Of a stretch of DNA of 64,000 bases, positions 6,840 to 24,271 are shown in pieces; positions within the stretch are counted from its first letter, which is position 1, and every line of letters starts with the position of its first letter. The notes below the pieces were generated by a model. That model was not told where the DNA came from. It ran no database searches and was given only the letters and a program-made list of their open reading frames with translations. The position numbers and the translations under genes were made by a program. Source of the DNA: a candidate division CPR2 bacterium GW2011_GWC2_39_35 (GTDB taxonomy: Bacteria; Patescibacteriota; CPR2). The stretch is taken from positions 62,586 to 126,585 of the forward strand of contig LBWX01000002.1 in the NCBI GenBank assembly GCA_000995065.1, in the 5' to 3' direction.

Positions 6840-6890
6840 ACTTTTAGCCCCTTTCGTCTATTCTCTTGTTCCGGTGAAGCCAGGCTTACT

Positions 6891-7178: not shown

Positions 7179-7284
7179 ATCTATCCTCCTTCAGATACAG
7201 TCTCATTCCAACCTTCGTGAGGGGTATTTTACCATATTAAAGGCTTTTTGTAAATGTTGAGCTCACAAGACGCGATAGGAAGGC

Positions 7285-7596: not shown

Positions 7597-7620
7597 TCAA
7601 TTGAATAGTAGTTCAAGCTG

Positions 7621-8235: not shown

Positions 8236-8298
8236 GCTTGATGATAAATACTTAAAAGTTAGCCCTAAAGATATTTTTGAGTTTTAGCTTTAAAATTA

Positions 8299-9171
8299 CT
8301 AAGAAAAAACCCTTAACGAAATTACCCCAGCTACAACAATGGCGATAGCCAAATACTGATTAAAAGTCAGTCTTTCCTTGTGCACGATAGCACCATAAAC
8401 GGTAGCTACTATAGGATTTGAAGAATAAAGGGCCAGAATAATGGCGGGGTTTCCGTTCTTTAAACCATAATACAAACCCACTGTGGCAACCGTAACTAAG
8501 GCGATTGCTATTACTATGCTTACTGAAGTTCTAATTTCTGGTAATGTAATTTTTTTCTTTCTATATAGAAGGACAAAAGAACCAACAAGAAAAGAGCCGC
8601 TTTCAAAAGTTATTGGTGCAAGAATTGGTCCTAAAGTCCTCGTTGGGATTTGAGAGGCAAAAAGGAAAATACCCATAAGAACACCGGATATCAGAGCATA
8701 ATTTAGACTGGTTTTGTCATTCTTTGTTAGATGATCCCTTAATGCTTTTGGATCAAGTCTAATTAAGACTACCCCCGCCACTATAGCCGAAATAGCTATT
8801 ATTTGAACAACTGATAACTTTACTCCAAGAAAAACTGTGGTTAAAAGAATGGCAAAAACTACATTCACCGAGGAAACAGGACTTACCAAGCCAATCTTAC
8901 CGATATTTAATCCTCGATAAAGAAAATTTAAAGCAAAATAACCGATTAAAGTTAAAGAAAGCCCAAAAAGAATTTGGGTCAAATCAAAATGATATTCAAA
9001 TAAGCCAACAAAAAAGATACCTGTTAAAAATAGCACACAAAGGAAAGTGCGTATGACCATATACTGGTCTACCCCGACCTTGGCAGTAATATTCTTTGTC
9101 ATGGAATTGGCAATTCCTAGCGAGACCATTACTATAAGGCCAAGAAAAATGCTTAAAGTGATTATATCCAT
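8299..9171 (-). CDS. DMT/EamA family transporter
   Basis: A 290-aa protein with about 10 TM helices in the two-EamA-domain architecture. Confidence 0.7.
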   Translation of the reverse strand: MDIITLSIFLGLIVMVSLGIANSMTKNITAKVGVDQYMVIRTFLCVLFLTGIFFVGLFEYHFDLTQILFGLSLTLIGYFALNFLYRGLNIGKIGLVSPVSSVNVVFAILLTTVFLGVKLSVVQIIAISAIVAGVVLIRLDPKALRDHLTKNDKTSLNYALISGVLMGIFLFASQIPTRTLGPILAPITFESGSFLVGSFVLLYRKKKITLPEIRTSVSIVIAIALVTVATVGLYYGLKNGNPAIILALYSSNPIVATVYGAIVHKERLTFNQYLAIAIVVAGVISLRVFS

Positions 9172-9230
9172 AAAGACATAATAGCAATCTACCGCTTTAA
9201 TTAAAGCCTTTTTTGTAGTATGATAATCCC

Positions 9231-10118
9231 ATGAAAATACCTACGAAAAAACTAAAAAATGGTTTCGAATTACCAGTCTATGGGCTAGGCCTTTGGGAGG
9301 TTGGTGGTCGTTTAGAATCGGATATCAGCAAAGACAGCGAAGAAATTAAAGGGATACAAGCCAACCTTGATTCCGGAGTTACTCACATTGATACGGCAGA
9401 ACTTTATGGAAATGGGCATGCAGAAGAACTCTTGGGACAAGCAATCAGAGGATTTGATCGCGAGGAATTATTTATTGCCAGCAAAGTCGGCCATGATGGA
9501 AAATTATCTTACGATAGAGTACGCAAATCATTTGAGGCAAGTTTAAAACGAATTGGCACGGATTATCTCGATCTTTACTATTTACATCTTTACCCGAAAC
9601 ATGGATATTCTATTGAAGAAACGATGAAAGCTATGAACGAATTAAAAGATCAGGGCTTAATAAAGAATATCGGTCTTTCTAATGTTACGCCAAACCGATT
9701 CAAAGAAGCTCAAAAATATTCTGATCACAAGATTGTCTGCAACCAGGTGCATTATAATCTCCAATACCGAGAAGTCGAGGACAAAAAAGTTTTATCCTTT
9801 TGCCAAGATAATGATGTAATGTTAGTAGCTTGGCGACCACTACAAAAAGGATTGCTTCCAGAATCAGATTTAATATTAAAAATTGCCAAAAAATATGAAA
9901 AAACACCAGCTCAGATTGCCCTTAACTGGCTCATTTCTCAAGATAGCGTTGTTACTATAGTAAAAACAAGCAATGTTGATCACTTAAAAGAAAATCTTGG
10001 CGCAGTTGATTGGACGATGGAAAAAGAAGATATAGCAAGGATTAGAAAAGAATTCCCAAATCAAGAATTGGTTTCAGAGGCTATTCCGCTAGATTACGAA
10101 GGCGAAATAGCACCATAG
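9231..10118 (+). CDS. aldo/keto reductase
   Basis: AKR signatures are present (GLGLWEVGG, IDTAELYGNGHAEELLGQ, DLYYLHL) at a typical AKR length. Confidence 0.85.
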   Translation: MKIPTKKLKNGFELPVYGLGLWEVGGRLESDISKDSEEIKGIQANLDSGVTHIDTAELYGNGHAEELLGQAIRGFDREELFIASKVGHDGKLSYDRVRKSFEASLKRIGTDYLDLYYLHLYPKHGYSIEETMKAMNELKDQGLIKNIGLSNVTPNRFKEAQKYSDHKIVCNQVHYNLQYREVEDKKVLSFCQDNDVMLVAWRPLQKGLLPESDLILKIAKKYEKTPAQIALNWLISQDSVVTIVKTSNVDHLKENLGAVDWTMEKEDIARIRKEFPNQELVSEAIPLDYEGEIAP

Positions 10119-10140
10119 ATTAACACAAGACCAGATATCA

Positions 10141-10175
10141 AGAAAGAACGTTTAAACGTTCTTTCTTCTTCTTAT
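10141..10175 (+). terminator. rho-independent terminator of the AKR gene
   Basis: AGAAAGAACG-TTTAAA-CGTTCTTTCT hairpin followed by TCTTCTT. Confidence 0.55.
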
Positions 10176-10217
10176 ATCTGACGACTGACGGAGGTCGGTC
10201 GCCAGGAACATCACACA

Positions 10218-10279
10218 TTGGCTCCCCGGATTCGCACTCATTCAATATTCTGGAAGAACTTGCCAGTTTGATTGCTTAA
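10218..10279 (+). repeat. composite intergenic repeat, partial copy containing the TTGGCTCCCCGGAT module
   Basis: TTGGCTCCCCGGATTCGCACTCATTCAATATTCTGGAAGAACTTGCCAGTTTGATTGCTTA is nearly identical to 11667-11729. Confidence 0.7.
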
Positions 10280-10418
10280 TTGAACCGCTATGAGCCACTA
10301 TTTAACCAATAAGACCAGTTAGCGAAGTTGGAGGAATATTTTAAATGGCTTTCCGCAATATAAAAAGACCCTTTTAGGCAACCTACAAATGAGTAGGCGG
10401 GGTCTTGTACCTTTACTT

Positions 10419-10817
10419 CTAATGATCAGCTTCTGCCAAAATAACTTCAGATAAACCAAGCTCGTATTTGGCATTTAGCTCCCTAAGAGATATAGGCGAT
10501 TCCAAATCTTGTACTAGTTGATCGAGCTGTTCTACCTCCACCATTGTTATAGATTCTGCTGCTGTCTTTTTGTTCTCCTCGGAAAGATGAGAATAGAATG
10601 TCGAGATCAGATATTCTGCACCCTTTGGTTCATTTGGTAAAGCATTATCGCCATCAGGAAGTTGTAAGTATGGAATTTGAATGCGATCTTCTTCTTGCTT
10701 CTTAAATCGAAGTGCCATGCGATCGGCAATCCGATCCCAAACAGGTTTTTCGTCCGGCGTTAATACCGTTAGTGTCCCACCAGGAATAAATCGACTTTCA
10801 CTCATTTGTTTCACCAC
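10419..10817 (-). CDS. hypothetical protein
   Basis: A 132-aa acidic ORF. Confidence 0.4.
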   Translation of the reverse strand: MVKQMSESRFIPGGTLTVLTPDEKPVWDRIADRMALRFKKQEEDRIQIPYLQLPDGDNALPNEPKGAEYLISTFYSHLSEENKKTAAESITMVEVEQLDQLVQDLESPISLRELNAKYELGLSEVILAEADH

Positions 10818-10877
10818 CTTTCTGGCTCAGGAATATGTGGACTAATCTATCGTTATTTGTTCACCTTCTTTCCCTAA

Positions 10878-11408
10878 CTAGAGGTCGAAATGCGTATAAT
10901 CATTAGCCCTGACTATCCGTGTAGACGCTTCGCATAGCTTATCCCTAGGGCCACCACAGTTCATACACCCTTTACCATCACAAGGAGCTTCTTTAAGAGG
11001 TTTTTCGCAGCCATAACAGAAACAAACCTTGCCTTTGTGCTCTGGTTGAATATAGTTGTTGTGACAGATTATCGGAGACTGACAAAGCAGAATACTATAA
11101 CTCGGCGACTGCTCGAGAAAATAGCATGCTTGCTTAAAGGGTACTGGACAGATATCGCGACAGATCGGATCAGCTTCACGGCGTTGCTTTGCGATGAAAC
11201 GAATATTGCACTTGCAGACATGACAACTCTTCACATGATCTAGGTATGGCCTGACTGCTTTTTTAAGGCTGACGACACCATAAGGCACTTTTTCCAATTC
11301 ATCTCTTGGAACGTGCTTATCAGCGTCAGGATCGATGGTGAGCGGCTTAAAAGGTTGACCTAAAAGCTCCTTGGCATATTTATTCCAAACTTTAGACACA
11401 AAAATCAC
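10878..11408 (-). CDS. cysteine-rich hypothetical protein with about 14 Cys, a putative metal-binding protein
   Basis: Many cysteines arranged in clusters (CHVCKC, CRDICP, CFCYGC, CDGKGCMNCGG). Confidence 0.45.
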   Translation of the reverse strand: MIFVSKVWNKYAKELLGQPFKPLTIDPDADKHVPRDELEKVPYGVVSLKKAVRPYLDHVKSCHVCKCNIRFIAKQRREADPICRDICPVPFKQACYFLEQSPSYSILLCQSPIICHNNYIQPEHKGKVCFCYGCEKPLKEAPCDGKGCMNCGGPRDKLCEASTRIVRANDYTHFDL

Positions 11409-11532
11409 TCCTTCGATAAAGGTTTTTTTAACTTTATATAGAGCCTTAGAGGCGTTGGTGGATTGTAAATGTACGGGTTATACGGGATGAATCCAGAGGA
11501 TTGTCGCTTGAATTATATAACAAAGGGCTAAT

Positions 11533-11729
11533 TTTTCAATGATTTTGGGGAAACCAGGGGGTTGGATTCAAACCTTTCCAAAAAACAAAAATGGCTCGTT
11601 AAAGCCATTGTCTTGCAGTTTGAATAACGCCTAACCCAGGGTTATTAATGTTTTTAGTTGGAATCCTATTGGCTCCCCGGATTCGCACTCATTCAATATT
11701 CTGGAAGAGCTTGCCAGTTTGATTGCTTA
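11533..11729 (+). repeat. composite intergenic repeat, full copy of subtype A
   Basis: About 150 nt are identical to 13615-13760: TTCAATGATTTTGGGG, GGATTCAAACC, the hairpin AATGGCTCGTTAAAGCCATT and TTGGCTCCCCGGAT. The right end matches 10218-10279. Confidence 0.75.
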
Positions 11730-11768
11730 GACTTCTAAGACTGTTGTTGCCAAAAGTAATCGCAGGTC

Positions 11769-12143
11769 ATGCCTTATAAATCAGCGATTCTTATTATTGA
11801 CAAAAATTGTCCAAGAATCTATTATACGTTCATGAACGAAGCAGATAAAAAAGCAATTGAAGAACTCCTAAATAAACAAACAGAGCGCTTTAATCAAGCA
11901 ATGGATATCCGTTTTCAAGAGCAGGAAGAGCATCTTGAAAAGCGTATGGTAGGTATTTTTAATGAAGGCTTTGAACAGATTGTATTGCCTCATATCGCAA
12001 CATTAAGCGAAAAAGTAGATAGTCTGGATTCGAATACAGAAAGAATCGATAGAAAGCTTAATGCCATAGTCGATCGCCAAGACAACCAAGGAAAAGAAAT
12101 CCAAGGCATCAAAACGTTTGTTCAAATGCCGGAAATTGCATAA
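11769..12143 (+). CDS. hypothetical coiled-coil protein
   Basis: A 124-aa ORF. The true start may be an internal Met (MNEADKK). Confidence 0.35.
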   Translation: MPYKSAILIIDKNCPRIYYTFMNEADKKAIEELLNKQTERFNQAMDIRFQEQEEHLEKRMVGIFNEGFEQIVLPHIATLSEKVDSLDSNTERIDRKLNAIVDRQDNQGKEIQGIKTFVQMPEIA

Positions 12144-12371
12144 AACTATATTGAAAAATGAATGTTTTTAATGGCACTTAAAAGTGCCATTTTTGAATAG
12201 ATTGTTCCTGGTTTTTAGAGTAGTCGTAATTAAATATCTTTGCCTAAATATAAAAAAGGACTTCGTAAAACACATTTTAAAAATGTATAAGACAAAATCC
12301 TCTTAGCTTTAAGGACTCGGTCCATCGCCGAATCTCTTTTATAAAAAACGGTACTATAATGCTATGAAAGT

Positions 12372-13181
12372 TTATCTAAGCAAGGTTTCTTTTTTTTGAT
12401 ACTGATCTTGGTCCGCAATTTCGATAAGTAGCTTCTGGGCAATCAGACAATACCTATAATCCTCAGTCTCAATTTTTTTGTCTTCTTCCAGCTTTTGCAT
12501 ATTAAAGATCAAAGGGCACTCTACGGCTCTTAGTGGCAACGAAGGTGCTAATGAGCCTGAAGGCTCATATAACTTACGCAGGTCATGAAGATAGAGAATA
12601 AATTGCTCAGCACTAATATTGGGAATGTCCTTGATAACTGGCAAAACTCTTTCTTCGTAAATATCTTTAAGCCGTTCCTTGCTAGCAAACAAAGTCGATT
12701 TTTCAATCGCTTTTCCGCTAAACCCTTCTTCAGTCTCCTTTATCTCTGTTGCAAAAAGCGGCTTTTCTTGAAAATCAGTTAGAGCTATATGATTTAAAAT
12801 TAATCTTGATAGCTCAAAAAGGTTATCACTTCCAACTGGTTGATTGCCTAAATTTTGCATATCCAGAGCTAGAATGATTTCTACTCCTCTTAAAAATTCG
12901 ATACCCCCGTTAGCTTCAATTTTTTGGCTCAACAATTGGAGCTCTTTTGGATAACTTTCTGCGCCAAGAGTAATTCGTTCTTTGGCAAATGGAAGAAGCA
13001 CTTCGTTTAAAAAAACACGAGCTCCATTTTTATTGCATCTACAATTAAAATCCACTCTGTGTTCAATTTCATAACCTTCCGGCGTTTCTTCTATATGAGC
13101 TCTCATTTCTAATTCCTTCCGTGGTGAGGTCTGGTCATTAACAAAACCCAAGTTAAGATTACAAGGATTGATTGTCAGCAT
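12372..13181 (-). CDS. hypothetical protein, co-directional with and overlapping the ACP-like gene
   Basis: A 269-aa ORF that overlaps the upstream ACP-like ORF by 23 nt. The true start may be the internal MRAHIEE. Confidence 0.45.
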   Translation of the reverse strand: MLTINPCNLNLGFVNDQTSPRKELEMRAHIEETPEGYEIEHRVDFNCRCNKNGARVFLNEVLLPFAKERITLGAESYPKELQLLSQKIEANGGIEFLRGVEIILALDMQNLGNQPVGSDNLFELSRLILNHIALTDFQEKPLFATEIKETEEGFSGKAIEKSTLFASKERLKDIYEERVLPVIKDIPNISAEQFILYLHDLRKLYEPSGSLAPSLPLRAVECPLIFNMQKLEEDKKIETEDYRYCLIAQKLLIEIADQDQYQKKETLLR

Positions 13182-13470
13182 TGGCCATAGCCTGATTCGC
13201 TGCCTCTATTAAAGATATTGGCGTTGGATACTTATCGATTGCGTCTGCTATCCTAGAAGGAATGGCGCCCACCTCAATATCCTCAATGTTGAGGGATTCT
13301 TCTAGAGACATTATAATCTCCACAATATCTAGATTATCCAATCCAAGATCCCAAAAACTAGAATCGTTTTCTAAGGATTCTATGTCTTCCTCTTTAAGTC
13401 CAGGGACTTCTCTTAGGACACCTACAAGAGCACTCGAAACTCTGTTATCCAAATCAATTAACCGAGACAT
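13159..13470 (-). CDS. acyl-carrier-protein-like domain protein with Asn in place of the phosphopantetheine-attachment Ser
   Basis: SSFWDLGLDNLDIVEIIMSLEESLNIEDIE aligns with the canonical ACP segment [26 protein letters not shown], with the Ser of DSL replaced by Asn. Confidence 0.55.
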   Translation of the reverse strand: MSRLIDLDNRVSSALVGVLREVPGLKEEDIESLENDSSFWDLGLDNLDIVEIIMSLEESLNIEDIEVGAIPSRIADAIDKYPTPISLIEAANQAMANADNQSL

Positions 13471-13614
13471 TCCTTTTCCTCCTTTTAGATACGGTGAGCA
13501 TATTTAGACACCTATAAGTAAACTTCTTGGAAGCATAAATGAGTTGGTAACGTGCAAACTTAATAAGAATTGACTAGCGGATTGACGCTTGCAGTATATA
13601 TTAATTAGGCAATT

Positions 13615-13818
13615 ATTCAATGATTTTGGGCGAAACCAGGGGGTTGGATTCAAACCTTTCCAAAAAACAAAAATGGCTCGTTAAAGCCATTGTCTTGCAG
13701 TTTGAATAACGCCTAACCCAGGGTTATTAATTTTGGTTTGAATCCTATTGGCTCCCCGGATCGGACTATCTTCGAACTTTTGGAGTATTTGTGCCTGTGT
13801 GCTAGTGCTTAATACTAA
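13615..13818 (+). repeat. composite intergenic repeat, full copy of subtype A with a subtype-B right end
   Basis: Near-identical to 11533-11680. It then continues TTGGCTCCCCGGATCGGACTATCTTCGAACTTTTGGAG...GCTTAATACTA, as in the copies at 15479, 17714 and 19539. Confidence 0.75.
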
Positions 13819-13891
13819 TATAAAAAAACAAAAGCGGTCGCCAAATATTTCTGACGACCGCAAACGGTCTTCCATTCAATGATGCTATTTG

Positions 13892-15160
13892 CTATATACC
13901 CGTTAAGGCAATATCGGTGCGATAGCACATGTCTGGAAATTTGATCTTACTAACTGCTTCATACGCTCTTTCTCTGGCCTCACCAAAGTCCTTTCCAAGA
14001 GCACTCACATTGAGCACGCGTCCACCTGCTATATGGAATTCGCCATCTTTGATTGTTGTTCCGGCATGATAGATAGTAACACCTTCGATTCTGGATGCAT
14101 CATCAATACCCTGGATTTCCAGCTCGGGATAGTGATCCGTGCCTGGATAACCACCAGAAGCTATAACTACTGAAGCACAAACTTCTGGTTTCCATTTGAG
14201 CTTTACTCCTGAAAGATCGCCTTCCACTACGGCAAGCATAGGCTCCATGATATCGCTTTCGAGCCGCGGTATGATTGCTTGAGTTTCAGGATCACCGAAG
14301 CGACAATTAAACTCGATGACCTTAGGCCCATCTTCAGTAATCATGAGTCCGGCGTAGATGATCCCTTTGTAGGTCATACCTTCTTTTGCCATGGCTGTAA
14401 TGGTCGGCTTTAAGATGGACTCGATAATCTCCTCATAAAGCTCTGGCGTTACCTTTGGCACTGGTGAGTATGAACCCATGCCTCCGGTATTAGGACTGTT
14501 CTTTTCGGTGTCCAGACGTTTGTAGTCTTGAGCAGGAACCAAGGGTAAAATATTCCTACCATCTGAGAAGGCCAGCATTGAAAGCTCCCAGCCTTCTAGA
14601 CATTCCTCAATAAGAACAAGGTCATGAGGATTGATGTATTCTGACTTGGAAAAGCCTCTTCTAACCGCCGCCTCAGCTTCCTTGAGGTCACTTGTGACAA
14701 CTACACCCTTTCCTCCAGCTAAACCATCAACCTTAACTACATACGGTGGGGGCATCTTCTTTAGGAAGTCAATAGCATGATGGTATTCTGCAAATAGAGA
14801 GCTTTCACCAGTAGGAATACCGTAACGTTTCATAATGGTCTTGGCATAGTTCTTGCTACCTTCAAGCATGGCAGCGCCAGGTCCTGGACCAAACATCTTT
14901 TGGCTCCGGTAATCGAAATATCCTCCGATTCCGAGTACAAGCGGAACTTCAGGCCCCACTACGGTTAGTCCAACTCTGTTTCGCTTCGCAAAACGAACTA
15001 GCCGGGAGCAATCAGCGGCTGCAATATCAACATTGTGTGCAATTTCTCTAGTGCCACCATTGCCTGGAGCTACAAATACTTCACTTACTTCAGGCGATTC
15101 CAGGATTTTCTTGGTTAAAGCATGTTCTCTTCCGCCGCTACCAACAACTAATACTCGCAT
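13892..15160 (-). CDS. purD: phosphoribosylamine--glycine ligase
   Basis: MRVLVVGSGGREHAL at the N-terminus, ATP-grasp motifs, and a 422-aa length typical of PurD. Confidence 0.9.
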   Translation of the reverse strand: MRVLVVGSGGREHALTKKILESPEVSEVFVAPGNGGTREIAHNVDIAAADCSRLVRFAKRNRVGLTVVGPEVPLVLGIGGYFDYRSQKMFGPGPGAAMLEGSKNYAKTIMKRYGIPTGESSLFAEYHHAIDFLKKMPPPYVVKVDGLAGGKGVVVTSDLKEAEAAVRRGFSKSEYINPHDLVLIEECLEGWELSMLAFSDGRNILPLVPAQDYKRLDTEKNSPNTGGMGSYSPVPKVTPELYEEIIESILKPTITAMAKEGMTYKGIIYAGLMITEDGPKVIEFNCRFGDPETQAIIPRLESDIMEPMLAVVEGDLSGVKLKWKPEVCASVVIASGGYPGTDHYPELEIQGIDDASRIEGVTIYHAGTTIKDGEFHIAGGRVLNVSALGKDFGEARERAYEAVSKIKFPDMCYRTDIALTGI

Positions 15161-15270
15161 GGTTTCTCTCCTTCTATTCTAATAAACGTTTTTTGGAATA
15201 AAGTATAAATAAGCTTCCTAGGAAGCATTAATTGGTTGGGAATGTGCATGAATAGCAAGAAATATTTGAG

Positions 15271-15545
15271 GAATTGACGCTTGCACTATACAATAAAGGG
15301 CTGTTTTTTCAATGATTTTTGACCCCGGATCGGACTATCTTCGAACCAAAAAAATGGCTCGTAAAAGCCATTCTAGATAAATTAAGTTATTTATTTGTGC
15401 AAATCTCGGAAATTATTCGAACTTTTATTTTAGCTCTACAAAGCCCTAAAACGGCTTAATTTCCAGTTTCTGCCACATTGGCTCCCCGGATCGGGCAATC
15501 TTCGAACTTTTGGAGCGGTTGTGCCTTTACGCATCTGCTTAAGCT
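15271..15545 (+). repeat. composite intergenic repeat, subtype B (about 270 bp) with two tRNA-end-like modules
   Basis: Contains TTGACGCTTGCACTATA, TTCAATGATTTT, GACCCCGGATCGGACTATCTTCGAACC, the hairpin AATGGCTCGTAAAAGCCATT and TTGGCTCCCCGGATCGGGCAATCTTCGAAC. It is a homolog of 19375-19620. Confidence 0.75.
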
Positions 15546-16550
15546 TATTGCTTCTTCTTTTTTACAACCTTTTTCTTTGCTATCTGAGCAGCCGAGAGTG
15601 CCGCTGTGTCAAAATCAGTGTCTAGACTTTTTGCTTCGTTTTTCTTGTACTCATCAAAATGCTTTTCCGCTGTTTCTACTGCTAATTCGTGCGATACTTT
15701 ACCAGCACTGGTTAAGATATCTCTGTCGTTTAGTTTTAAGAAGCCATGTAGTTTTTCTATCCAATCCTTCATATACATTGGCACGCGTCGCATAGCCTGG
15801 CCTTCAGCAAACACAAGATATTGCTCGACAAGGTTGTTAAGGGCAAGAAGTTCCGGCTCTGTCAAATAGTTTTTAGCAATCGTCACATCGTCTTTGCGAG
15901 GCTTCGTCCCCCGCCATGAAGTAAGTCCCATATATGGCCTTGTGCTATCGGCACGAGAACTTATAATCTCGGATGCAGTTTGACCGGTAATGGCGTAGTG
16001 GACTTTGTTTTGGACTGTTTTAAAAAACAGAATACTTGTTTCATCGGTCGGATCATAGTCAACGCTGGTCGCATAGATATCGGTGATCTTTCTGTAAAAG
16101 CGCTTTTCGGAAGTGCGTATATCCTGAATACGGAGAAGTAATTCTTCGAAATAGTCAAAGGGTAGATCTGGATTTTTAAGACGTTCATCGTCTAGCACAA
16201 AACCCTTTACGATATATTCACTTAAACGGGCAGTCGCCCATTGACGAAAAGCTGTTGCAATAGAGCTTTTAACACGATAGCCAACGGAGATGATGAGATC
16301 GCTCATTTTGAACTATTCGGAATTTCCGAATAGTTGAATCTTTGCTCAATTCTCCTTCTTGATAAATGTTCTTTATGTGTTCGTTAATGGTTGGAACGGT
16401 AACCTGAAAAAGCTCGGCCAAGAGTTTTTGCGTAAGCCAAACCGTTTCGCCGTCAAAACGGACATCGATTTTAGTTTGACCGTCTTCGGATTTATAAATG
16501 ATTAGTTGTGAGTTAGGATCATTTTTCATAATGGTAAATTCGCTTTGCAT
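15545..16550 (-). pseudogene. RhuM-family (virulence RhuM-like) gene split by a frameshift into 93-aa and 253-aa ORFs
   Basis: The N-terminal ORF (IIYKSEDGQTKIDVRFDGETVWLTQKLLAELFQ) and the C-terminal ORF (ISVGYRVKS...GFVLDDERLKNPD) together cover a RhuM-like protein. The two ORFs overlap at 16269-16306 in different frames. Confidence 0.6.
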
Positions 16551-16765
16551 TACTTTGCGCCCTCATTATACACCAGGCGTGCGTGGGCTAAAATGGTATT
16601 TTGTCGCGTTGGTCTTTTCCGGATAAAACATCATTCTTAGATTCGTATTTTTTGAAATATTTAGAGCCATTATGCTTATGTGGTGCCTAATAGATTCCTT
16701 TTGTCATTGACCGACTTATAATGGTTTAGTAAGTTGGTACTATAACAGCATAGCAAGAGGTCCAT

Positions 16766-17623
16766 ATGAAAAGCAAATCACGCCGTTATGAAATTATAAG
16801 GGAGATTGCAGTAACTACTCTGTGGTCAATCCTTGCAGGCATTCTAGGATTGTTTGTGGTGATGCTGATCGGCCTTCTGGTATTTAAAACCAAGAGGCTC
16901 CCACCCGAATCAACGTTTGTCTTTTTTGTAACCGTGTGGCTAGTTGTCTATTTAAGACTCAAAAAGAGCGGTAAAACCTTTGCAGATATAGGCCTTGGGG
17001 AAAAGGGGCTTTTTAGTCGCTCAACAATAGGTTTGCTTATCGGCGCCGGATTCATGACGGCTACCTTCGCCTTTCTTCTTTCCATAAAAGCCGTTACTTT
17101 TACAGAACACACAATTAGCTCTTCCTTAGCTATAATTCTTGTTTCAGGCCTTGCCTATAGCATGATTCAAGCTAGTGTTGAAGAAGTGTTATTTAGGGGC
17201 TATTTCTTAAATATCCTGGCCTGGAAGAATCGCCTATCAGCGATTCTTGTAACCTCTGCCTTATTTTCCTTCCTTCACTTCTGGCATGGTGTTCATCTTA
17301 TCGGCTGGCTCAACATATTCCTTTTCGGGGTGTTTGCTGCTCAATCATTTTATTTATTCAAGAGCTTGTGGGTGCCTATAGGTTTCCATATCGGTTGGAA
17401 TTACTTCCAGAAATATGTCTTCACCTTTCCGATTTATGGAAGCGATAACACAAGAGGACTGCTTGCTCTAAACGATGCAAACAAGGGTTTATTGAGTGGC
17501 GGTAGTTTTGGTCCAGAAGGAAGCATAATCATAACTCTATTGTTAGTAATGACTATTGGGCTAATTTATTGGCGACAAAAAGAAACATTAATTGCGGTAA
17601 ATCCTCGGCTTGCTCAAAACTAG
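16766..17623 (+). CDS. CPBP-family intramembrane metalloprotease (CAAX protease/Abi-like)
   Basis: EEVLFRGYFLN, FSFLHFWHG and downstream His motifs in a polytopic membrane protein. Confidence 0.8.
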   Translation: MKSKSRRYEIIREIAVTTLWSILAGILGLFVVMLIGLLVFKTKRLPPESTFVFFVTVWLVVYLRLKKSGKTFADIGLGEKGLFSRSTIGLLIGAGFMTATFAFLLSIKAVTFTEHTISSSLAIILVSGLAYSMIQASVEEVLFRGYFLNILAWKNRLSAILVTSALFSFLHFWHGVHLIGWLNIFLFGVFAAQSFYLFKSLWVPIGFHIGWNYFQKYVFTFPIYGSDNTRGLLALNDANKGLLSGGSFGPEGSIIITLLLVMTIGLIYWRQKETLIAVNPRLAQN

Positions 17624-17660
17624 CCCATTACTGTACCCTATAACCGTAGGGAGACATCAC

Positions 17661-17689
17661 AAAATGCCTTTACAGAAGGCATTTTTATG
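17661..17689 (+). terminator. rho-independent terminator of the CPBP gene
   Basis: AAAATGCCTT-tacaga-AGGCATTTT hairpin followed by TAT. Confidence 0.5.
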
Positions 17690-17713
17690 GGTTGATTGAT
17701 GCGTCGAAAAACA

Positions 17714-17790
17714 CTGGCTCCCCGGATCGGGCAATCTTCGAACTTCTGGAGCAATTATGCTTATGTGCTAGTGCCTAATAATTTGCATTT
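17714..17790 (+). repeat. composite intergenic repeat, partial copy (TTGGCTCCCCGGATCGGGCAATCTTCGAAC module)
   Basis: CTGGCTCCCCGGATCGGGCAATCTTCGAACTTCTGGAGCAATTATGC...GCCTAATAAT matches the right half of subtype B. Confidence 0.7.
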
Positions 17791-17801
17791 TTTAAGTAGC
17801 C

Positions 17802-19235
17802 TTAGGGGATAAGATTATTGATGATCTTCTCCCCTAAGAATGAATAAATGCTTCCCTCTTTGTTGAAATCTATAGAATTATCGGCTACTAGTTCTGCAAG
17901 TGTCTGTCCAACTGCTACTTCCCATGGCTTAGAGCTTCCAGTGATGCCCACTAAATCGTTCCTAATGCTTTTAATATCATAATTCATCCGGTCAAAATCA
18001 CTTTCTTTAAACCCGGACATCACCAAGAAATTAGGGTGTGCTGTGTTAACATCGAGCCAATGTTCAATACCAGCCTGAAGCGCAGCCCAATCCATTCCAA
18101 GCTTACTCAGAACCTCATCAGTTAAGAGCAAATTTTCAGCATTTCTACATGATAGCTTCAACCGTACTACGGGCAGAATGTCATCTATCGTCCCATCGCT
18201 ATCATCTCGATCTCTTAACGAATAGGCCGTTGCATTGTCATAAACGGCTTGAATAATGTTCTTAGCTTCTTGTTCATAATCGTTCAGTTCACTAATCCCA
18301 CCAGTAGGGCAAGGATATACCTTGACTCTTCCATTTGATGACCGAACCGCTTGCTGCCATATACGCTCATCGTCTTCGCCCTCGACTAATAGCAATGGGG
18401 CTTCATTAAAAATGTTCGATAATGGATGTGCTCCAAAAACCGGCAGAATGCTTCTGTATACAGGAGTAATTGGTTTAAATTCTAAGCAGGTTTGCCCTGA
18501 CTTCATGAATGCGATATGAGCGTTATGTTGAGACTCTAGAGCCCCTAAAATTGCTGTACTATGTGTTGACAACACAATCTTAAATGCATTTTCTTCAACC
18601 AAATTTATAAGAAAATGCATTAGACGTACTTGCAAGTCTGGATGTAAATGAACGTCGGGCTCGTCAAGAAATAACATATTGTCTTTGTTCGGCACACATT
18701 CTTTGCTGAAAACTAAGCATTCGATACCTAAAGAGATTAATTCACTTTCCCCGCTACTAATCATCCCGGCATTAAGTTCTGTGTCATCTCCCTTTTGATA
18801 GATTTTAAAAGTGGTATCATCTCTCGCAATCCTGATATTATCAAGCAAGTCATTGATTTTATCTACATAAAGGTCAAATGTATAAGCATGATCGCTTCTT
18901 TTGCCTCTCTCTATCTCTCTTAATATCAACGTTTCCAACTTCCTGTACTGCACTACGCTTTGCTGTCTGAATTGGTTATATTGATTATTTCTACGGGTAT
19001 CGGGTAGCCATGAGGGGCTATCTGTTAAATTTTGTTCAATACCGGCTTCATAAATTAAGGATCCGCCTCGTTCGGGCGTTATATATTTAGCTTTACCAAA
19101 AGCAGGATTATTCGAAAGAAGGTTCTGCTCTACTGTTCTTATTAGCCTGCTCTTGCCACATCCATTTTTGCCGAGAACAATGTTAACGTTATTTAGATTT
19201 ATTAAGCTGTAACCACTGATATTAATAATTTCCAT
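17802..19235 (-). CDS. OLD-family ATP-dependent endonuclease (N-terminal ABC-like ATPase plus C-terminal TOPRIM), class-1-like and stand-alone
   Basis: Walker A (GKNGCGKSRL), Walker B plus H-loop (LFLDEPDVHLHPD...LSTHS), and a C-terminal TOPRIM-like LLLVEGEDDE. Confidence 0.75.
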   Translation of the reverse strand: MEIINISGYSLINLNNVNIVLGKNGCGKSRLIRTVEQNLLSNNPAFGKAKYITPERGGSLIYEAGIEQNLTDSPSWLPDTRRNNQYNQFRQQSVVQYRKLETLILREIERGKRSDHAYTFDLYVDKINDLLDNIRIARDDTTFKIYQKGDDTELNAGMISSGESELISLGIECLVFSKECVPNKDNMLFLDEPDVHLHPDLQVRLMHFLINLVEENAFKIVLSTHSTAILGALESQHNAHIAFMKSGQTCLEFKPITPVYRSILPVFGAHPLSNIFNEAPLLLVEGEDDERIWQQAVRSSNGRVKVYPCPTGGISELNDYEQEAKNIIQAVYDNATAYSLRDRDDSDGTIDDILPVVRLKLSCRNAENLLLTDEVLSKLGMDWAALQAGIEHWLDVNTAHPNFLVMSGFKESDFDRMNYDIKSIRNDLVGITGSSKPWEVAVGQTLAELVADNSIDFNKEGSIYSFLGEKIINNLIP

Positions 19236-19374
19236 AATTTCTCCATATTACTTGACTGTTTCGTCATCATCTAGTCCCTTGACTTAATCGTTATCTAAGA
19301 CATGTTCATTATACAGCAAACAGTTGTTCGATTATAGTTTAACAAAGCGGTTATGGACAAACGCTATATTAGCC

Positions 19375-19620
19375 AAATTTCAATGATTTTAGACCCCGGA
19401 TCGGTCAATCTTCGAACCAAAAAAATGGCTGTTCAGAGCCATTATCGATAAATTGGGTTATTTTTGGTCCAATCTTTTCCAAAAATTCGAACCGATATTT
19501 TAGCTCTACAGAGCCCTAAAACAGGCTAATTTACAGATTCTACCATATTGGCTCCCCGGATCGGGCAATCTTCGAACTTTTGGAGCGTTTGTGCTTATAT
19601 GCCAGCGCTTAATACTAAAT
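19375..19620 (+). repeat. composite intergenic repeat, full copy of subtype B
   Basis: Contains TTCAATGATTTTAGACCCCGGATCGGTCAATCTTCGAACC, the hairpin AATGGCTGTTCAGAGCCATT and TTGGCTCCCCGGATCGGGCAATCTTCGAACTTTTGGAGCG...GCTTAATACTA. Confidence 0.75.
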
Positions 19621-19625
19621 AAGAA

Positions 19626-20666
19626 CTAAGGTTTTTCAACCCTATCAATCATAAACTTAACTGTTTCATTCATATTGATTGGCTTTATAACAATATCCGG
19701 ATGTTTTGATTGAAACACTCTAAATATTTCATCAGCAAATGCCTGACCGATTGTAGGCACTTTGTCGAAGTCTAAAATTATAACCTTAAATTTTGACAAA
19801 TTTACCGTTACTCTTCTGGCCTGCGACCTTGAAACATAAATAGTACCCATGGCATATAGTTTGATTCTGATTTCTGTCTTATCAAAAGCCATTTCTTCCG
19901 AATCCGTTTGATATTTAGCAAAAACATCGCTGAGATGTTTCCCTGATTCGACTGAAATAGTAAACGTTACCCTAGTTCCTTTTTTGGCAGGCTTTATATC
20001 TTCGACAAAAACATCATTTATTAGATTATCTATTCTTAGCCGATATTCAAAACTATCCAAAACAAAGATATCTGCCGCTTTTGAAGTAAAAAAGATACCC
20101 TCGCCCGAATGAGCTTGAGGCGCCGTTGTTGTTTTGCCTTTTAAAAGATCCTGAATTGCTTCCAGTTCGGATTTTAAGCCTCTCTTTTTCATAATGTTTC
20201 TAAAAACCCCAATGCCAGAGTCCGAGATGGTAAACTTTAAATTATTATTCTCTTTAATAACTTCTATGTCGATTTCTGAAGACAGGGAATGCTCAATTGC
20301 ATTATTAAGCATCTCTGAAAACGCGAAAGTAAAGATGCTTAAAACATTCTCGGTTAGCTTGCCCAGGAAAGGCGTTTGTTTTTGGATTCGATCTAAAATC
20401 TCATGTTCCTGCAAATTAACATTTTTAAGTCTGATGTGGGTTCTATTTCTTAAAAGATCCGCATCCCGAGGAAGCGCATATTCGGTAAAACGACCGCCTC
20501 CAGAACGAATGAGTTCACCCTTTTGGACCAAGTCCTTTAATATCGAGGTAATATATTGCCTAGAAACCTCTATGTCTAAATTCGCTAAAATATCAGAAAG
20601 ACCAAGTTTTCCTTTTACATGTGCGACATTAAATATTGTTTGTGTCACTTTTTTCTTAATATCCAT
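19626..20666 (-). CDS. wHTH plus GHKL (histidine-kinase-like) ATPase plus C-terminal STAS-like (DUF4325-type) domain protein
   Basis: A winged-helix-like N-terminus, GHKL motifs (NNAIEH, DSGIG, GEG) and a C-terminal STAS-like fold (VIILDFDKV...). Confidence 0.55.
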   Translation of the reverse strand: MDIKKKVTQTIFNVAHVKGKLGLSDILANLDIEVSRQYITSILKDLVQKGELIRSGGGRFTEYALPRDADLLRNRTHIRLKNVNLQEHEILDRIQKQTPFLGKLTENVLSIFTFAFSEMLNNAIEHSLSSEIDIEVIKENNNLKFTISDSGIGVFRNIMKKRGLKSELEAIQDLLKGKTTTAPQAHSGEGIFFTSKAADIFVLDSFEYRLRIDNLINDVFVEDIKPAKKGTRVTFTISVESGKHLSDVFAKYQTDSEEMAFDKTEIRIKLYAMGTIYVSRSQARRVTVNLSKFKVIILDFDKVPTIGQAFADEIFRVFQSKHPDIVIKPINMNETVKFMIDRVEKP

Positions 20667-20703
20667 ATGAATCCTTCTTATTGTACGACTATTATAGTAT
20701 AAC

Positions 20704-20756
20704 GTAAACTCAATGTAAACAACAATATTTTCAATGTAAACTCAATGTAAACTGAG
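20704..20756. promoter_or_regulatory. CAATGTAAAC direct repeats (3-4 copies) upstream of the HTH-GHKL-STAS gene, putative operator iterons
   Basis: AAACTCAATGTAAAC...TTCAATGTAAACTCAATGTAAACTGA lies immediately upstream of the gene start at 20666. Confidence 0.45.
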
Positions 20757-20772
20757 GTTTTTTAGAGAAGTA

Positions 20773-20822
20773 AGGATCGAACTTTTGGAGCAGTTGTGCC
20801 TTTATGCAACTGCTTAATATAT
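20773..20822 (+). repeat. composite intergenic repeat, partial right-end copy
   Basis: GGATCGAACTTTTGGAGCAGTTGTGCCTTTATGCAACTGCTTAATATA matches the right ends of the subtype-B copies. Confidence 0.6.
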
Positions 20823-20935
20823 TATAGCCAAAGCCCTCTTTAAAAGAAACGTCCCCAGTATCAATAAATCAATACTGGGGACAGCCCCGCAAACCCTTAT
20901 GATGTTTTCTACCGCAGAAGGATGGAAGCGACCGA

Positions 20936-21472
20936 TTATTTTCGTTTTGCAAAGAACCTGTTCATTAGCCGGGTAAAAGTCCCTTGGTATTTTATAAGGT
21001 CCTTCTTGTCAATGCTCCACTGATCTTGCCCATCGACTGCAAAAGCCGCAATTTGGACATTGGGATAAAGCCTTACCCATGTACGCCGCCGAAGGTCTTG
21101 CGTTGACTCGATCACCTTTTTGCCTTCAACAAACCCTTCGGTTGATTGCAAGCCTGCATCTGTAAGCGTGATTTCGCGTCGTGTGTGCTCTGTGCCAATG
21201 GTTTCATCGAAGTAGAGCTTTCCGAAAGACATCTGAGAATCGCTTTCCCAAAAACGGTCTGACATGGTTGGCTCTAAATCGGGAACGAGCGCTTCCATCA
21301 GGGCTTGAAGTTTTTCGGCATCGTAGATACCTTGCTTAGGAGCCACATAAATATCAAACGTGTGGCTAAAGCCATTTTTGCCCGGCAGATAGTTGCTCTC
21401 CTGTATTTCCACGATCTCGATGTCCTTGTTTGCCTTTAATGCTTCCTGAACATGCGATGTTTTACTTTTCAC
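20936..21472 (-). CDS. hypothetical protein
   Basis: A 178-aa ORF. Confidence 0.4.
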   Translation of the reverse strand: MKSKTSHVQEALKANKDIEIVEIQESNYLPGKNGFSHTFDIYVAPKQGIYDAEKLQALMEALVPDLEPTMSDRFWESDSQMSFGKLYFDETIGTEHTRREITLTDAGLQSTEGFVEGKKVIESTQDLRRRTWVRLYPNVQIAAFAVDGQDQWSIDKKDLIKYQGTFTRLMNRFFAKRK

Positions 21473-21739
21473 CTTATTTCCTCCTTAACTGGCTCGCTAG
21501 GCGAGAATCCTACTTTTCCCTTGATGCAACAATCAAGCAACAGTTTTTATTACCTGGTTATTGCATCAAGAAATAAAACAAAAGGATTAATCTATATCCC
21601 AGCTACCTGAGGAATAAAGAGAAGTGTCAGTTCTGAAGTAGAAACTTTTGATGCAGGTTCTAAAGGGGCATCGAAATAAACAAGTGTTTATTTGACGCTT
21701 TATATTATCATAAAAACGTATTTTAGTCAAGTATCTAAA

Positions 21740-21905
21740 GGTTGGGTTCAAACCATTGAGTTGGCTTGGCAAAGCAAAAAAACAGGCTTATGGTTCGAAT
21801 CCTATCCGGGGTTTACTTTTCCACATACTAAAAAATGCCTATCTAAAGGCATTTTTCCAGATTTTTACATTGGCTCCCATACAAAAACGTGTTTAGAACT
21901 TTGGA
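21740..21905. repeat. tRNA-fragment-like repeat region containing an inverted GACCCCGGAT-type module and a TTGGCTCCCA module
   Basis: GGTTCGAATCCTATCCGGGGTTTAC is the reverse-complement homolog of GACCCCGGATCGGACTATCTTCGAACC. TTGGCTCCCATACAAAAACGTGTTTAGAACTTTGGATTGGGAG resembles 4199-4250. There is no complete tRNA cloverleaf. Confidence 0.5.
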
Positions 21906-22008
21906 TTGGGAGAAGATTGCTGAAGAATTAGAAATATTTCAAAGAATATCGCAATTTCAATTACAAAAAAATTAACATTCAAAAATTTCCTGCTAGATAA
22001 AATATGTC

Positions 22009-22413
22009 TTATCTTTTAGCTGAAGAGACTTTAAAAGTAGAGTGGTCTATATCAAATGCGAAAAAGAAAGCCATTCTATCATCGTTAGATAACCCAAAAA
22101 TAATTTTAAAAGCGCTTTTCCCATAGTCTACCCTAAAGAGATTCTTCTCATATCCGAACAAATTGACTAGCCTTTTACCCTCTTTGCTATTTGGCCTAAC
22201 CGGTTGAATGTCCGCCCCAACGCCTTTACTTTTTAGCTCCAATAAGCTTTCTGAGTCTATCAATGCGGAAATTAAATTTTTAACCTTAATAACGTGGGTA
22301 TCATCTAGATAAAGCTTTTCAACCGGAAAATGAGAATATTTATAATTAGAAAAACAAGGGAGAAAACCACGCTTTGCCATTTTATATATCGTTACTTTTA
22401 AAGTAGCTACCAA
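22009..22413 (-). CDS. putative toxin, RelE/ParE-like
   Basis: A 134-aa ORF downstream of and overlapping the Panacea-domain gene. The segment FRVDYGKSAFKIIFG resembles the RelE/ParE core. Confidence 0.35.
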   Translation of the reverse strand: MVATLKVTIYKMAKRGFLPCFSNYKYSHFPVEKLYLDDTHVIKVKNLISALIDSESLLELKSKGVGADIQPVRPNSKEGKRLVNLFGYEKNLFRVDYGKSAFKIIFGLSNDDRMAFFFAFDIDHSTFKVSSAKR

Positions 22414-22834
22414 TCTCAGCTTTCGGTATAATATTATTTTCCCCTTCTTGATAAAACTTATTCCAAGGCGTATTTGGCTTATGGGTTTGTTTTACTAAAA
22501 AAGAAGCAGAAAACTTACCAACATCTTCCCAAATCTTATTTAGAAAATCACCTAGTTGTTGGGATATATTTTGCGGTTCGGCAGGAACATCAAAAACAGT
22601 AATGGGGAAATTCCCACAACTTTTGAATGCACTATAAACATTTTTAACAACTGGGCCTAAGGCCCAAGCCTCTATTTCTTCATCAAAAATAGGATTCTTG
22701 TATTGAGCGATATATTTACCTTGAGCAAAATAAAGAAGCTTTTGAAGCTTTAAGTTTGTCAAATCGTTCTCGTCTATATGGCTTGCCAATACCACAAAAT
22801 AATTAGCTATGTCGATTGCATTTACTTTATCCAT
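22382..22834 (-). CDS. Panacea-domain (DUF4065, SocA/PanA-like) putative antitoxin
   Basis: KLQKLLYFAQGKYIAQY...EAWALGPVVKNVY matches the DUF4065/Panacea signature. Confidence 0.6.
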   Translation of the reverse strand: MDKVNAIDIANYFVVLASHIDENDLTNLKLQKLLYFAQGKYIAQYKNPIFDEEIEAWALGPVVKNVYSAFKSCGNFPITVFDVPAEPQNISQQLGDFLNKIWEDVGKFSASFLVKQTHKPNTPWNKFYQEGENNIIPKAEIGSYFKSNDI

Positions 22835-22977
22835 TTTTGTTTCCTCTACTAAAGCTTATTCTTATTAAATAATAATGCTTGTCTAATAAAATTATACTTT
22901 ATTATAGGAAAGATTTACAGAAATTCTATAATGCTATAATAATAACTAATAAGAATTAAATAAAGAAGTGATGAATT

Positions 22978-23766: not shown

Positions 23767-23978
23767 TGCACAAGAAATGATATGTAACACATAAAGCTCT
23801 TATACTTATTTTTATCTATGAAATAACCTTTGGAATATAAGGTTATTTTTTATTTTAAAAACTATGGAAGAAACAAAGAGCGACAGATTAACAAACGAAA
23901 AACTTGAAGCCAAATACAATTTGACTGGCTTTTTTAAGTTGCTCTTAGAAATTGATATGAGAGTTAACCCACATTTAT

Positions 23979-24239: not shown

Positions 24240-24271
24240 TTTAAAAATGTATTTAAGAAAAAAGTAATGAA

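Follow-up and report, generated by a model that had tools for sequence, protein, structure and literature searches.

The 64 kb window analysed here (contig LBWX01000002.1, positions 62,586–126,585) belongs to the candidate division CPR2 bacterium GW2011_GWC2_39_35, and between 4.2 and 21.9 kb it contains co-oriented composite repeats far in excess of chance expectation. A 12 kb part of it, flagged in a first-pass annotation as a cassette-like array punctuated by one repeat family, is the core of a 27 kb island (window 4198–31393) attached to the 3′ end of a tRNA-Asn(GTT) gene. The repeats, referred to below as junctions, separate units of 1–2.4 kb that hold one or two genes each, and the island probably grew by tandem accretion of recombinase-less cassettes at tRNA-Asn. 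It is a compact variant of the tandem islands known from tRNA-like genes, of which the ssrA islands of Dehalococcoides are the nearest precedent.

A repeat search of the window and a reading of its intergenic gaps recovered every repeat position in the first-pass annotation, with offsets of no more than about 10 nt, and the shared blocks it described were recognisable in the gaps. Two outlying copies that it had placed at 4199 and 5336 correspond to sites at 4198–4240 and 5170–5350, and the range it gave for the array (10120–21910) was too short, as the repeat tract extends from 4198 up to the tRNA at 31386. The module TGGCTCCC occurs ten times in the window, always within 4198–31393 and, as had been claimed for modules of this type, always on the plus strand (10/10); the expectation from shuffled sequences is 1.35, and ten copies were never reached. 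The last copy, ending at 31393, is the 3′ end of tRNA-Asn(GTT) itself. A 24 nt module, CCCCGGATCGGNCWATCTTCGAAC, is present six times with no mismatches, for an expectation of 0.00.

Read in the sense of the tRNA (the minus strand of the window), a junction consists of a left arm, CCG|GG and a right arm, forming composite modules of 110–300 nt. Among 40 junctions from about eight organisms (CPR2 and Candidatus Aquicultor), four to five left-arm classes are combined with at least five right-arm classes, joined always at CCGGGG. The left arm may be the tRNA body, P1 (TTAAGC, an imperfect hairpin, then GCTCCAAAAGTTCGAAGATTGYCCGAT at its end), P2 (AAGCAATCAAACTGGCAA..TTGAATRAGTGCGAAT), P3 (beginning CCAATCCAAGTTCTAAACACGTTTTT..), P4, or a terminator-linked copy of the core. 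The commonest trailer, right arm R1, comprises AGCCAATATGG.., hairpin 2, an intrinsic terminator, a second site and a sigma-70-like promoter block. The other right arms are R2 (TCAAAAATCATTGAA plus a promoter-like block), R3 (ATGCATTTTT..), R4 (AGCACTTTTT..AAAAACCGCTTTGTAGAGCGG) and R5 (AGCCAATGTAAAAATCTGGAAAAATGCC.., then a terminator).

When 14 P1 junctions are aligned, a stretch of 25 nt (AGTTCGAAGATWGYCCGATCCGGGG) is nearly invariant and conservation ends directly after GGGG. Junctions B and C of the window have right arms that are 92–97% identical and left arms that differ (P2 in B, P1 in C). Arms that reassort freely at one fixed point are a signature of site-specific recombination, and the copies are mosaics built from a few left-arm and right-arm classes, not members of a single repeat family as first described. 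This pattern does not suit a repetitive extragenic palindrome or miniature inverted-repeat transposable element (REP/MITE), nor the attC site of an integron, nor a structured RNA.

The block described as opening the repeat, TTGACGCTTGCA.TATA...TTCAATGATTTT, is a sigma-70-like promoter on the minus strand, directed into the next cassette; its consensus score is 11/12 at 11539–11512 and 10/12 at 15312–15285. The AATGGCT..AGCCATT hairpin had been read as a minus-strand intrinsic terminator, and five such hairpins score as one. These five terminators and four minus-strand promoter-like sites (9–11 of 12) lie at fixed places in the junctions, the promoters being consensus matches only. The long junctions would stop transcription of one cassette and start that of the next, creating insulated expression units if these consensus promoters are active.

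Coordinates of the junctions, cassettes and flanking features are given in Table 1; the last junction and the attachment site next to it together occupy 21692–21912. The site at 4198–4240 is taken as the island boundary and would be the relic of an older serine-integrase element. The gene functions named in the first-pass annotation were largely right (Cys-rich, acyl carrier protein (ACP)-like, purD, RhuM, CPBP and GHKL-STAS), except that its OLD nuclease is an AriA/AriAB-like ATPase-Toprim protein.

Table 1. Features of the tRNA-Asn island (window coordinates).
Feature	Position	Strand	Description
Outermost site	4198–4240	−	direct repeat TGGCTCCC and P3-type arm; adjoins ABC transporter genes
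Junction A	5170–5350	−	tRNA-spaced module ~5188–5212, terminator 5226–5245, hairpin 2 ~5300–5322; left side: tRNA 3′ end 5342–5350, left arm of a different kind
Repeat-free block in island	5351–10216		aldo/keto reductase, EamA transporter, hydrolase, small open reading frames (ORFs)
Junction H	10217–10278	−	tRNA 3′ end and P2 arm; 98% identical to 11668–11729
Cassette	10279–11494	−	Cys-rich 176 aa protein 10878–11408 (15 Cys); 132 aa protein 10419–10817
Junction B, long form with P2 arm	11495–11730	−	promoter-like 11539–11512, tRNA-spaced module ~11546–11572, terminator 11590–11609, tRNA 3′ end 11670–11680, P2 arm 11681–11729
Cassette	11731–12312	+	124 aa protein 11769–12143, opposite strand; homologue in Aquicultor secundus (L014 10075–10669)
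Putative decayed core-like site	12313–12336	−	GAGATTCGGCGATGGACCGAGTCC on minus strand, between the 124 aa gene and the ACP cassette; judged by eye against the core consensus
Cassette	12337–13575	−	ACP-like protein 13159–13470 (Pfam PP-binding); 269 aa protein 12372–13181
Junction C, long form	13576–13818	−	promoter-like 13620–13593, tRNA-spaced module ~13628–13654, terminator 13672–13691, tRNA 3′ end and core 13749–13778, P1 arm 13779–13818
Cassette purD	13819–15267	−	gene 13892–15160; Pfam GARS_N/A/C
Junction D, long form	15268–15548	−	promoter-like 15312–15285, second site 15323–15347, terminator 15353–15372, hairpin 2 15428–15449, tRNA 3′ end and core 15479–15508, P1 arm 15509–15548
Cassette RhuM	15549–16662	−	348 aa in public assemblies, split in window
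P1-arm relic	16663–16693	−	5′ of RhuM; nhmmer; matching relic upstream of RhuM in L009
Cassette	16694–17711	+	Rce1/CPBP-like membrane protease 16766–17623 (Pfam), opposite strand
Junction F, short	17712–17784	−	tRNA 3′ end and core 17715–17744, P1 arm 17745–17784; right arm AGCCAGTGTTTTTCGACGC
Cassette	17785–19374	−	AriA/AriAB-like ATPase-Toprim (OLD-family) protein 17802–19235; Pfam AAA_15/AAA_21; padloc AriAB 7.6e-19
Junction E, long form	19375–19618	−	second site 19394–19418, terminator 19424–19443, hairpin 2 19498–19519, tRNA 3′ end and core 19549–19578, P1 arm 19579–19618
Cassette	19619–20776	−	GHKL ATPase (HATPase_c) and DUF4325 (STAS-like) protein 19626–20666; Pfam
Junction G	20777–20817	−	P1 arm with truncated core; nhmmer E=1.5e-10
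Cassette	20818–21691	−	178 aa protein 20936–21472; no family match
Junction I, native tRNA-Asn trailer	21692–21870	−	terminator 21831–21856, inverted tRNA-like fragment 21792–21812, tRNA-spaced module 21739–21754, promoter-like site 21730–21702
attR of serine-integrase element	21871–21912	−	direct repeat TGGCTCCC and P3 arm ATACAAAAACGTGTTTAGAACTTTGGATTGGGAG
Serine-integrase element, ~9.5 kb	21879–31385	+	inserted precisely at the tRNA-Asn 3′ end
Large serine recombinase, 502 aa	29919–31427	+	Pfam Resolvase, Recombinase and Zn_ribbon_recom; phrog_95 integrase; last gene of the element
tRNA-Asn(GTT), island anchor, attB-type site	31386–31460	−	ARAGORN; Rfam tRNA, 74.5 bits

All eight public assemblies of the genome (L001–L008) contain three stretches that the window lacks (35 nt at 11648/9, 39 nt at 13730/1 and 41 nt at 16301/2), and are otherwise identical to it. 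Loss of the 35 and 39 nt removes hairpin 2, so that junctions B and C are truncated in the window, and the 41 nt gap makes RhuM appear frameshifted (253 + 93 aa vs 348 aa elsewhere). The missing stretches probably reflect the stripping of assembly gaps, not a biological difference, and the public versions were used where they mattered.

Each junction carries the last 8–11 nt of tRNA-Asn(GTT) in the orientation of the tRNA. Both the resemblance of the modules to this 3′ end and the proposal of tandem att-scar accretion at a tRNA, made in the first-pass annotation, are therefore upheld. Further support for accretion comes from the confinement of the repeats to one locus, from related bacteria in which tRNA-Asn is followed by the same trailer and by arrays, and from variation between strains. 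The one- or two-gene units would be cassettes that integration after integration piled up at the tRNA-Asn 3′ end, and recombination from site to site would later have shuffled them. A separate candidate, that the P1 arm and core are a full decayed tRNA-Asn, was rejected, as no similarity was seen (by eye) upstream of GTTCGAA.

No further copy of the junction core lies elsewhere in the window, nor in the 10 kb beyond each of its ends (84 kb of CPR2 sequence in all), and a scan of viral contigs gave no match. Relatives of the core pattern were found in four species-representative genomes only and in a handful of metagenome contigs, and they belong to Candidatus Aquicultor (Actinomycetota); about 45 of the 59 loci returned by the metagenome scan are chance matches to its 18 specified bases. 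Exact cores are confined to a single contig in each matching genome, no complete genome being among them. On the question, raised at the outset, of whether the repeat is genome-wide or local, it is restricted to the tRNA-Asn island in the 84 kb of CPR2 sequence and in the scanned genomes.

The Aquicultor loci share the gene order dnaG, rpoD, an Fe-S protein gene, tRNA-Asn and the array. Three of them (L014, L090 and L091) have an RpoD identical to that of A. secundus, while L009 and L100 represent a relative with 86% RpoD identity. In A. secundus a genuine tRNA-Asn is followed by an R1 trailer and several co-oriented junctions, and in DS4.bin103 (L100) by an R4 trailer and, again, several co-oriented junctions; in a third Aquicultor species the tRNA-Asn has a plain terminator and no array. 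Aquicultor cassettes encode PIN/RHH, HicAB, MNT, AbiEi, methyltransferases, PadR, SnoaL, DsbA, RhuM, Imm5-like, ThiF-DUF6791 and similar proteins. No recombinase was found in the approximately 11 units of the window or in the units of the other arrays.

Group I introns interrupt the anticodon loop of some tRNA-Asn(GTT) genes (L082 11516–11780, L100 13014–13260, L104 ~11500–11745 and L105 ~9900–10130), with matches to Rfam RF00028 of 56.5 and 96.4 bits. The hosts are CPR2-like bacteria and an Aquicultor relative, and the tRNA-Asn of the window has no intron. ARAGORN missed these intron-bearing genes, in L082, L104 and L105 because of the interruptions. The tRNA-Asn trailer of one A. secundus variant carries an IS66-family element (transposase and DUF6444 protein, inverted repeats GTAACTACTCAGCG) at L014 ~6437–8140, equivalent to L091 ~11066–12770, adjoining the last 20 nt of a RhuM cassette. 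Its transposase was discarded as a candidate enzyme for the arrays, being an unrelated insertion with its own inverted repeats, as was a Y1 transposase 11 kb upstream in L100 that is not present in other arrays.

Cassette presence and absence between strains, proposed as a check on the array, was found within species: contents differ between L090 and L091, between L100 and L101, and between L003 and the window. L090 and L091 have identical RpoD and different arrays (AbiEi.. then Fur/Znu in L090; IS66, HicAB, methyltransferase, SLH protein and MNT in L091), with divergence starting inside the tRNA trailer. L100 and L101 differ in several cassettes. Many Aquicultor contigs stop just past tRNA-Asn. 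In the CPR2 variant L003, a 227 aa ORF stands in place of the CPBP cassette, with a short P1|R2 junction and a relic of P2 on its flanks. The same contig carries, at 478–508, a 31 nt GC-rich palindrome (TCCGCCCAAGGCCGATCCGCCTTGGGCGGAG) within the GTTCGAA motif of a P1 arm; this may be a very small palindromic insertion, and the site would then be inactive.

Cassettes and junctions are also common to the two phyla. The RhuM cassette of CPR2 (15549–16662) is 84% identical over 1015 nt to that of the Aquicultor relative L009 (6588–7593), where it has different neighbours, and a remnant of it occurs in A. secundus. The cassette with the 124 aa gene is likewise found in A. secundus, beside a different junction, and junction D (15268–15548) is 85% identical over 226 nt to Aquicultor primus L010 1354–1579. 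Sequence sharing of this kind points to recent cross-phylum transfer between CPR2 and Aquicultor, and perhaps to a link between symbiont and host; the source samples of the two groups of genomes are similar groundwater.

Between the array and the tRNA lies the serine-integrase element, which carries a type III restriction–modification system and appears to be a separate, latest arrival. The first-pass annotation had the array end at a serine recombinase; this enzyme is relevant, its family being specific for the 3′ end of tRNA-Asn, but it sits in the separately inserted element. From the P3 distal arm the order of genes is a Panacea/SocA toxin–antitoxin pair, a 262 aa protein, SpoVG, a 380 aa protein, type III Mod, type III Res (padloc MTase_III/REase_III) and the recombinase, and the GC content is 0.31–0.35 vs ~0.39. 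Domain, padloc and phage-protein scans of the element gave no match to a primase, polymerase or capsid. When the element is deleted in silico, tRNA-Asn is followed by trailer R5, which also follows a GGGGAGCCA repeat inside an A. secundus array (L014 12186–12250).

The 502 aa recombinase bears the NCBI name ‘Cassette chromosome recombinase B’, and four loci (L082, L104, L105 and the window) have a member of its family next to the 3′ end of a tRNA-Asn. The same element backbone, with other cargo, occurs in L082/L085/L104/L105; two such elements stand in tandem in L082/L085, and every element of the family ends distally in T(T/G)GCTCCC and a conserved P3 arm. The length of homologues (502, 509 or 520 aa) varies with the flank, which means that sequence beyond the attachment site supplies the C-terminal tail. 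In the window, the recombinase ORF extends 42 nt (31386–31427) antisense into tRNA-Asn, with its stop in the anticodon loop. The cargo slot beside the P3 arm holds a Panacea/SocA-type antitoxin (150 aa) and a 134 aa partner at 22009–22834, and a DUF3800 gene in the L082/L085 element. One element copy lies at a non-tRNA pseudo-site, AAAAAAGTTCGGATTTCGTTCAGCGTTC|GGAGCCA (L085 11468–11530), in which the AGTTCG-GGAGCCA distance is as in a P1 arm.

The spacing of a GTTCGAA-like motif bears on the enzyme that formed the junctions. In 27 element-side arms (P1, P2, P3, P4 and second sites) the distance from this motif to the inferred central GG is 14 nt, although the 14 nt spacers are unrelated in sequence, and it is 9 nt in all four genuine tRNA-Asn genes, including the T-loop GTTCGAA of the window tRNA, and in five tRNA-like modules. 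In serine integrases, the zinc-ribbon-domain motif is found at positions 16–24 in attP half-sites and 11–19 in attB half-sites, a shift of 5 bp (Rutherford et al. 2013, PMC3783163). If the GG of CCG[GG], which also marks the break in conservation, is the crossover dinucleotide, the two spacings reproduce this shift and suggest a serine integrase. The likeliest candidate for the enzyme behind the P1 and P2 junctions is a large serine integrase specific for tRNA-Asn, from the family whose gene lies at 29919–31427.

Several observations weigh against this enzyme, or against present-day mobility of the cassettes. A mirrored GTTCGAAC motif at 9 or 14 nt was not found in the right arms; in the right arm of the element itself the motif, by our reading, is only 6–7 nt from the centre, and the symmetric centre for its own attP lies outside the shared repeat. 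No recombinase was seen in the Aquicultor arrays within the 8–21 kb at hand per locus (L036, L012, L042, L010 and L009 among those searched), and the few named serine-integrase homologues in the best 120 listed are from phyla of the Candidate Phyla Radiation and a methanogen, with none from Aquicultor. Serine integrases recombine attP x attB only, a rule that alone does not account for insertion after insertion at an existing attL. No sequence of a circle or of an empty site was recovered for single cassettes, and the breakpoint between L100 and L101 (L100 18487–18705) does not coincide with a canonical junction. One cassette carries purD, normally a housekeeping gene, and some units may be fixed rather than mobile. 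The L100/L101 breakpoint falls inside a segment of ~220 nt with inverted repeats GGTGCCTGTCTTGAAAG.. / ..CTTTCAAGACAGGCACC, beside AGTTCGA.

A broader reading is doubtful: a serine-integrase-driven, integron-like capture system, in which 1–2 kb cassettes with a tRNA-mimicking attP-type half-site and a portable terminator–promoter junction would be stacked at tRNA-Asn and traded between CPR2 and Candidatus Aquicultor in the same aquifers. On this view, the near-identical junctions and the RhuM cassette would be traces of direct gene flow linking a candidate episymbiont with its host.

That an island at a tRNA has simply decayed is an unlikely explanation, to about the same degree as the capture system. 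Successive prophages or integrative elements with tyrosine integrases would have entered at tRNA-Asn, and deletions would have left att scars and cargo, the serine integrase being unrelated to P1 and P2. Tyrosine integrases are usual for tRNA-targeting elements, and identities of 11–25 nt to the tRNA 3′ end are typical (general knowledge; 10.1101/2020.12.28.424599); the lack of a serine integrase in the Aquicultor arrays and the misfit of the right half-sites to the serine-integrase model also favour decay. Random decay, however, would not keep the P1 arm and core nearly invariant across organisms while the cassettes differ, nor does it fit the 14 nt vs 9 nt spacing across arms of unrelated sequence. 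Cassettes of 1–2 kb recur as units in different arrays, and no integrase fragment or backbone gene of a phage or integrative and conjugative element (ICE) is found in any cassette of at least seven arrays.

A REP/MITE-like or regulatory repeat, that is, a terminator–promoter module spread by transposition or gene conversion and resembling a tRNA by chance, is very improbable. The terminators and promoter-like sites in the junctions, the 85–97% likeness of the copies and the small palindromic insertion in one P1 copy of L003 would suit such a repeat, but it should not be limited to one tRNA-Asn island in 84 kb of CPR2 sequence and to one contig per matching scanned genome, with every copy co-oriented with the tRNA. 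The copies have no terminal inverted repeats or target duplications, the same trailer follows real tRNA-Asn genes, and the arms reassort at one fixed point.

The likeness to an integron noted in the first-pass annotation holds for the layout: mostly co-oriented one- or two-gene cassettes of unrelated functions, with toxin–antitoxin and defence genes among them. A resident recombinase capturing promoterless cassettes through folded, single-stranded attC-like sites is nevertheless largely refuted, and slightly less probable again than a dispersed repeat. Pfam searches covering the main ORFs at 0.6–44 kb in the window, and those of five other arrays, gave no Phage_integrase match, and thus no IntI-type tyrosine recombinase, the sole recombinase being of the serine type; moreover, the sites are tRNA-derived and the junctions bring their own terminators and promoter-like sites. 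The statement that the repeat is not an attC site was confirmed by the folding and covariation analysis it had called for: consensus folds of 14–15 junctions on both strands (RNAalifold) reached −1.7 and −3.8 kcal/mol with almost no covariation, and the best candidate stem, the P1-arm hairpin GCAGTTG..CAACTGC, is 74% paired with modest to weak covariation.

A structured non-coding RNA family between the genes (tRNA-like 3′ modules or small RNAs) is the least probable explanation. The modules do mimic a T-loop and acceptor end, and on the minus strand of D and E one stretch has, by eye, a loose likeness to a repeat:anti-repeat hairpin with terminator, but only true tRNAs match Rfam (no other family at E<=10), no consensus structure is found on either strand, and conservation tracks arm boundaries, not helices. 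The same D/E stretch, considered as a single-guide RNA (GTTTTAGGGCT..AGCTAAAAT hairpin and terminator), was rejected: the hairpin is out of register between copies, there is no Cas gene and no Rfam match.

The claim that no described system matches the array was too strong, as the ssrA islands of Dehalococcoides (PMC3146451), the composite islands of the staphylococcal cassette chromosome (SCC) and tycheposon islands are close precedents. The ssrA islands lie in tandem downstream of the transfer-messenger RNA (tmRNA) gene, bounded by 20 bp direct repeats of its 3′ end (McMurdie et al. 2011, PMC3146451), and encode, on the reverse strand beside attL, a large serine recombinase that is CcrB-like; further conserved sequence adjoins the repeats (PMC3146451). 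Fifteen of them have no integration module and were read as cis-mobilizable elements stacked by accretion (PMC3146451). The CPR2 and Aquicultor arrays are similar in their co-oriented tandem units with repeats of the target 3′ end, downstream of the target, in the additional conserved sequence at these repeats, and in the recombinase-less units between repeats; the window also has the large serine recombinase, which abuts and overlaps the 3′ end of tRNA-Asn. They differ in their hosts and target (tRNA-Asn, not tmRNA), in a repeat of 8–11 nt vs 20, in units of 1–2.4 kb with one or two genes vs multi-gene islands, and in composite junctions with terminator, second site and promoter; no small second serine recombinase was seen.

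SCC/SCCmec elements of staphylococci, which are tens of kb long, integrate at the 3′ end of rlmH (orfX) by a CcrB-type recombinase, and form tandem islands with direct repeats between the elements, ccr-less pseudo-SCC units included. The array resembles them in its CcrB-type large serine recombinase, its position at the 3′ end of one conserved gene and its tandem, partly recombinase-less units; it differs in having a tRNA target rather than rlmH (orfX) and in unit size, and we know of no terminator–promoter junction module in SCC. Tycheposon islands of Prochlorococcus lie beside tRNA genes, where newcomers push older elements inward and partial tRNAs are scattered (Hackl et al., bioRxiv 10.1101/2020.12.28.424599), and a minority of tycheposons use large serine recombinases (bioRxiv 10.1101/2020.12.28.424599). 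They share with the array a location adjacent to a tRNA and both full and partial tRNA repeats. Tycheposons carry an integrase with replication or packaging modules and leave irregular remnants, whereas the array has uniform mini-cassettes, conserved junctions and no such modules.

Integrons too hold small, mostly co-oriented accessory cassettes between recombination sites, shared across hosts, but the array lacks IntI, attI/attC hairpins and a single Pc promoter, its sites are tRNA-derived, and its enzyme would be a serine rather than a tyrosine recombinase. Streptococcal accretion of ICEs and cis-mobilizable elements (CIMEs) places recombinase-less att-flanked units in tandem with an integrase-bearing element and makes them cis-mobilizable; the enzymes are tyrosine integrases with conjugative helpers, the units are larger, and the att region is not known to hold a conserved expression module. 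The array matches this accretion in its tandem arrangement, and departs from it in its smaller units and in the expression module within the junction. Very small uniform cassettes, the terminator/second-site/promoter junction, the tRNA-Asn target and the sharing between Patescibacteria and Actinomycetota set it apart from all of the systems compared.

If the accretion reading is true, tandem accretion at a tRNA can give an array that equals an integron in compactness and modularity, made from tRNA-derived sites, probably run by a serine integrase, and with each junction doubling as a terminator–promoter unit. The arms would also provide natural attP-like sites, in several sequence classes that follow one spacing rule, for the study or re-targeting of a tRNA-specific serine integrase. 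Recent exchange of DNA between CPR2 and Aquicultor would be a rare sequence-level clue to the partners of CPR2, and under the capture-system reading it would amount to a testable host assignment. Should the reading fail, the island is still a clean hotspot of defence and accessory genes beside a tRNA.

Upstream of the GHKL-STAS gene, a stretch of about 50 nt (20705–20755) holds three copies of (T)CAATGTAAAC and four of GTAAAC; the (T)CAATGTAAAC repeats may be an operator for a regulator. Outside the island, a pair of 34 nt direct repeats (ATTT..CCAGGCGATCCGGCTATGCGGCCAT, 88% identical and 51 nt apart) at 3320–3404 overlaps an ABC transporter ATPase gene (3364–4074, minus strand) at its 3′ end and has no relation to the junctions. 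A replication-origin gene cluster lies at 38194–44133, about 8 kb from the island, with yidC and rnpA on the minus strand followed by dnaA, dnaN and recF.

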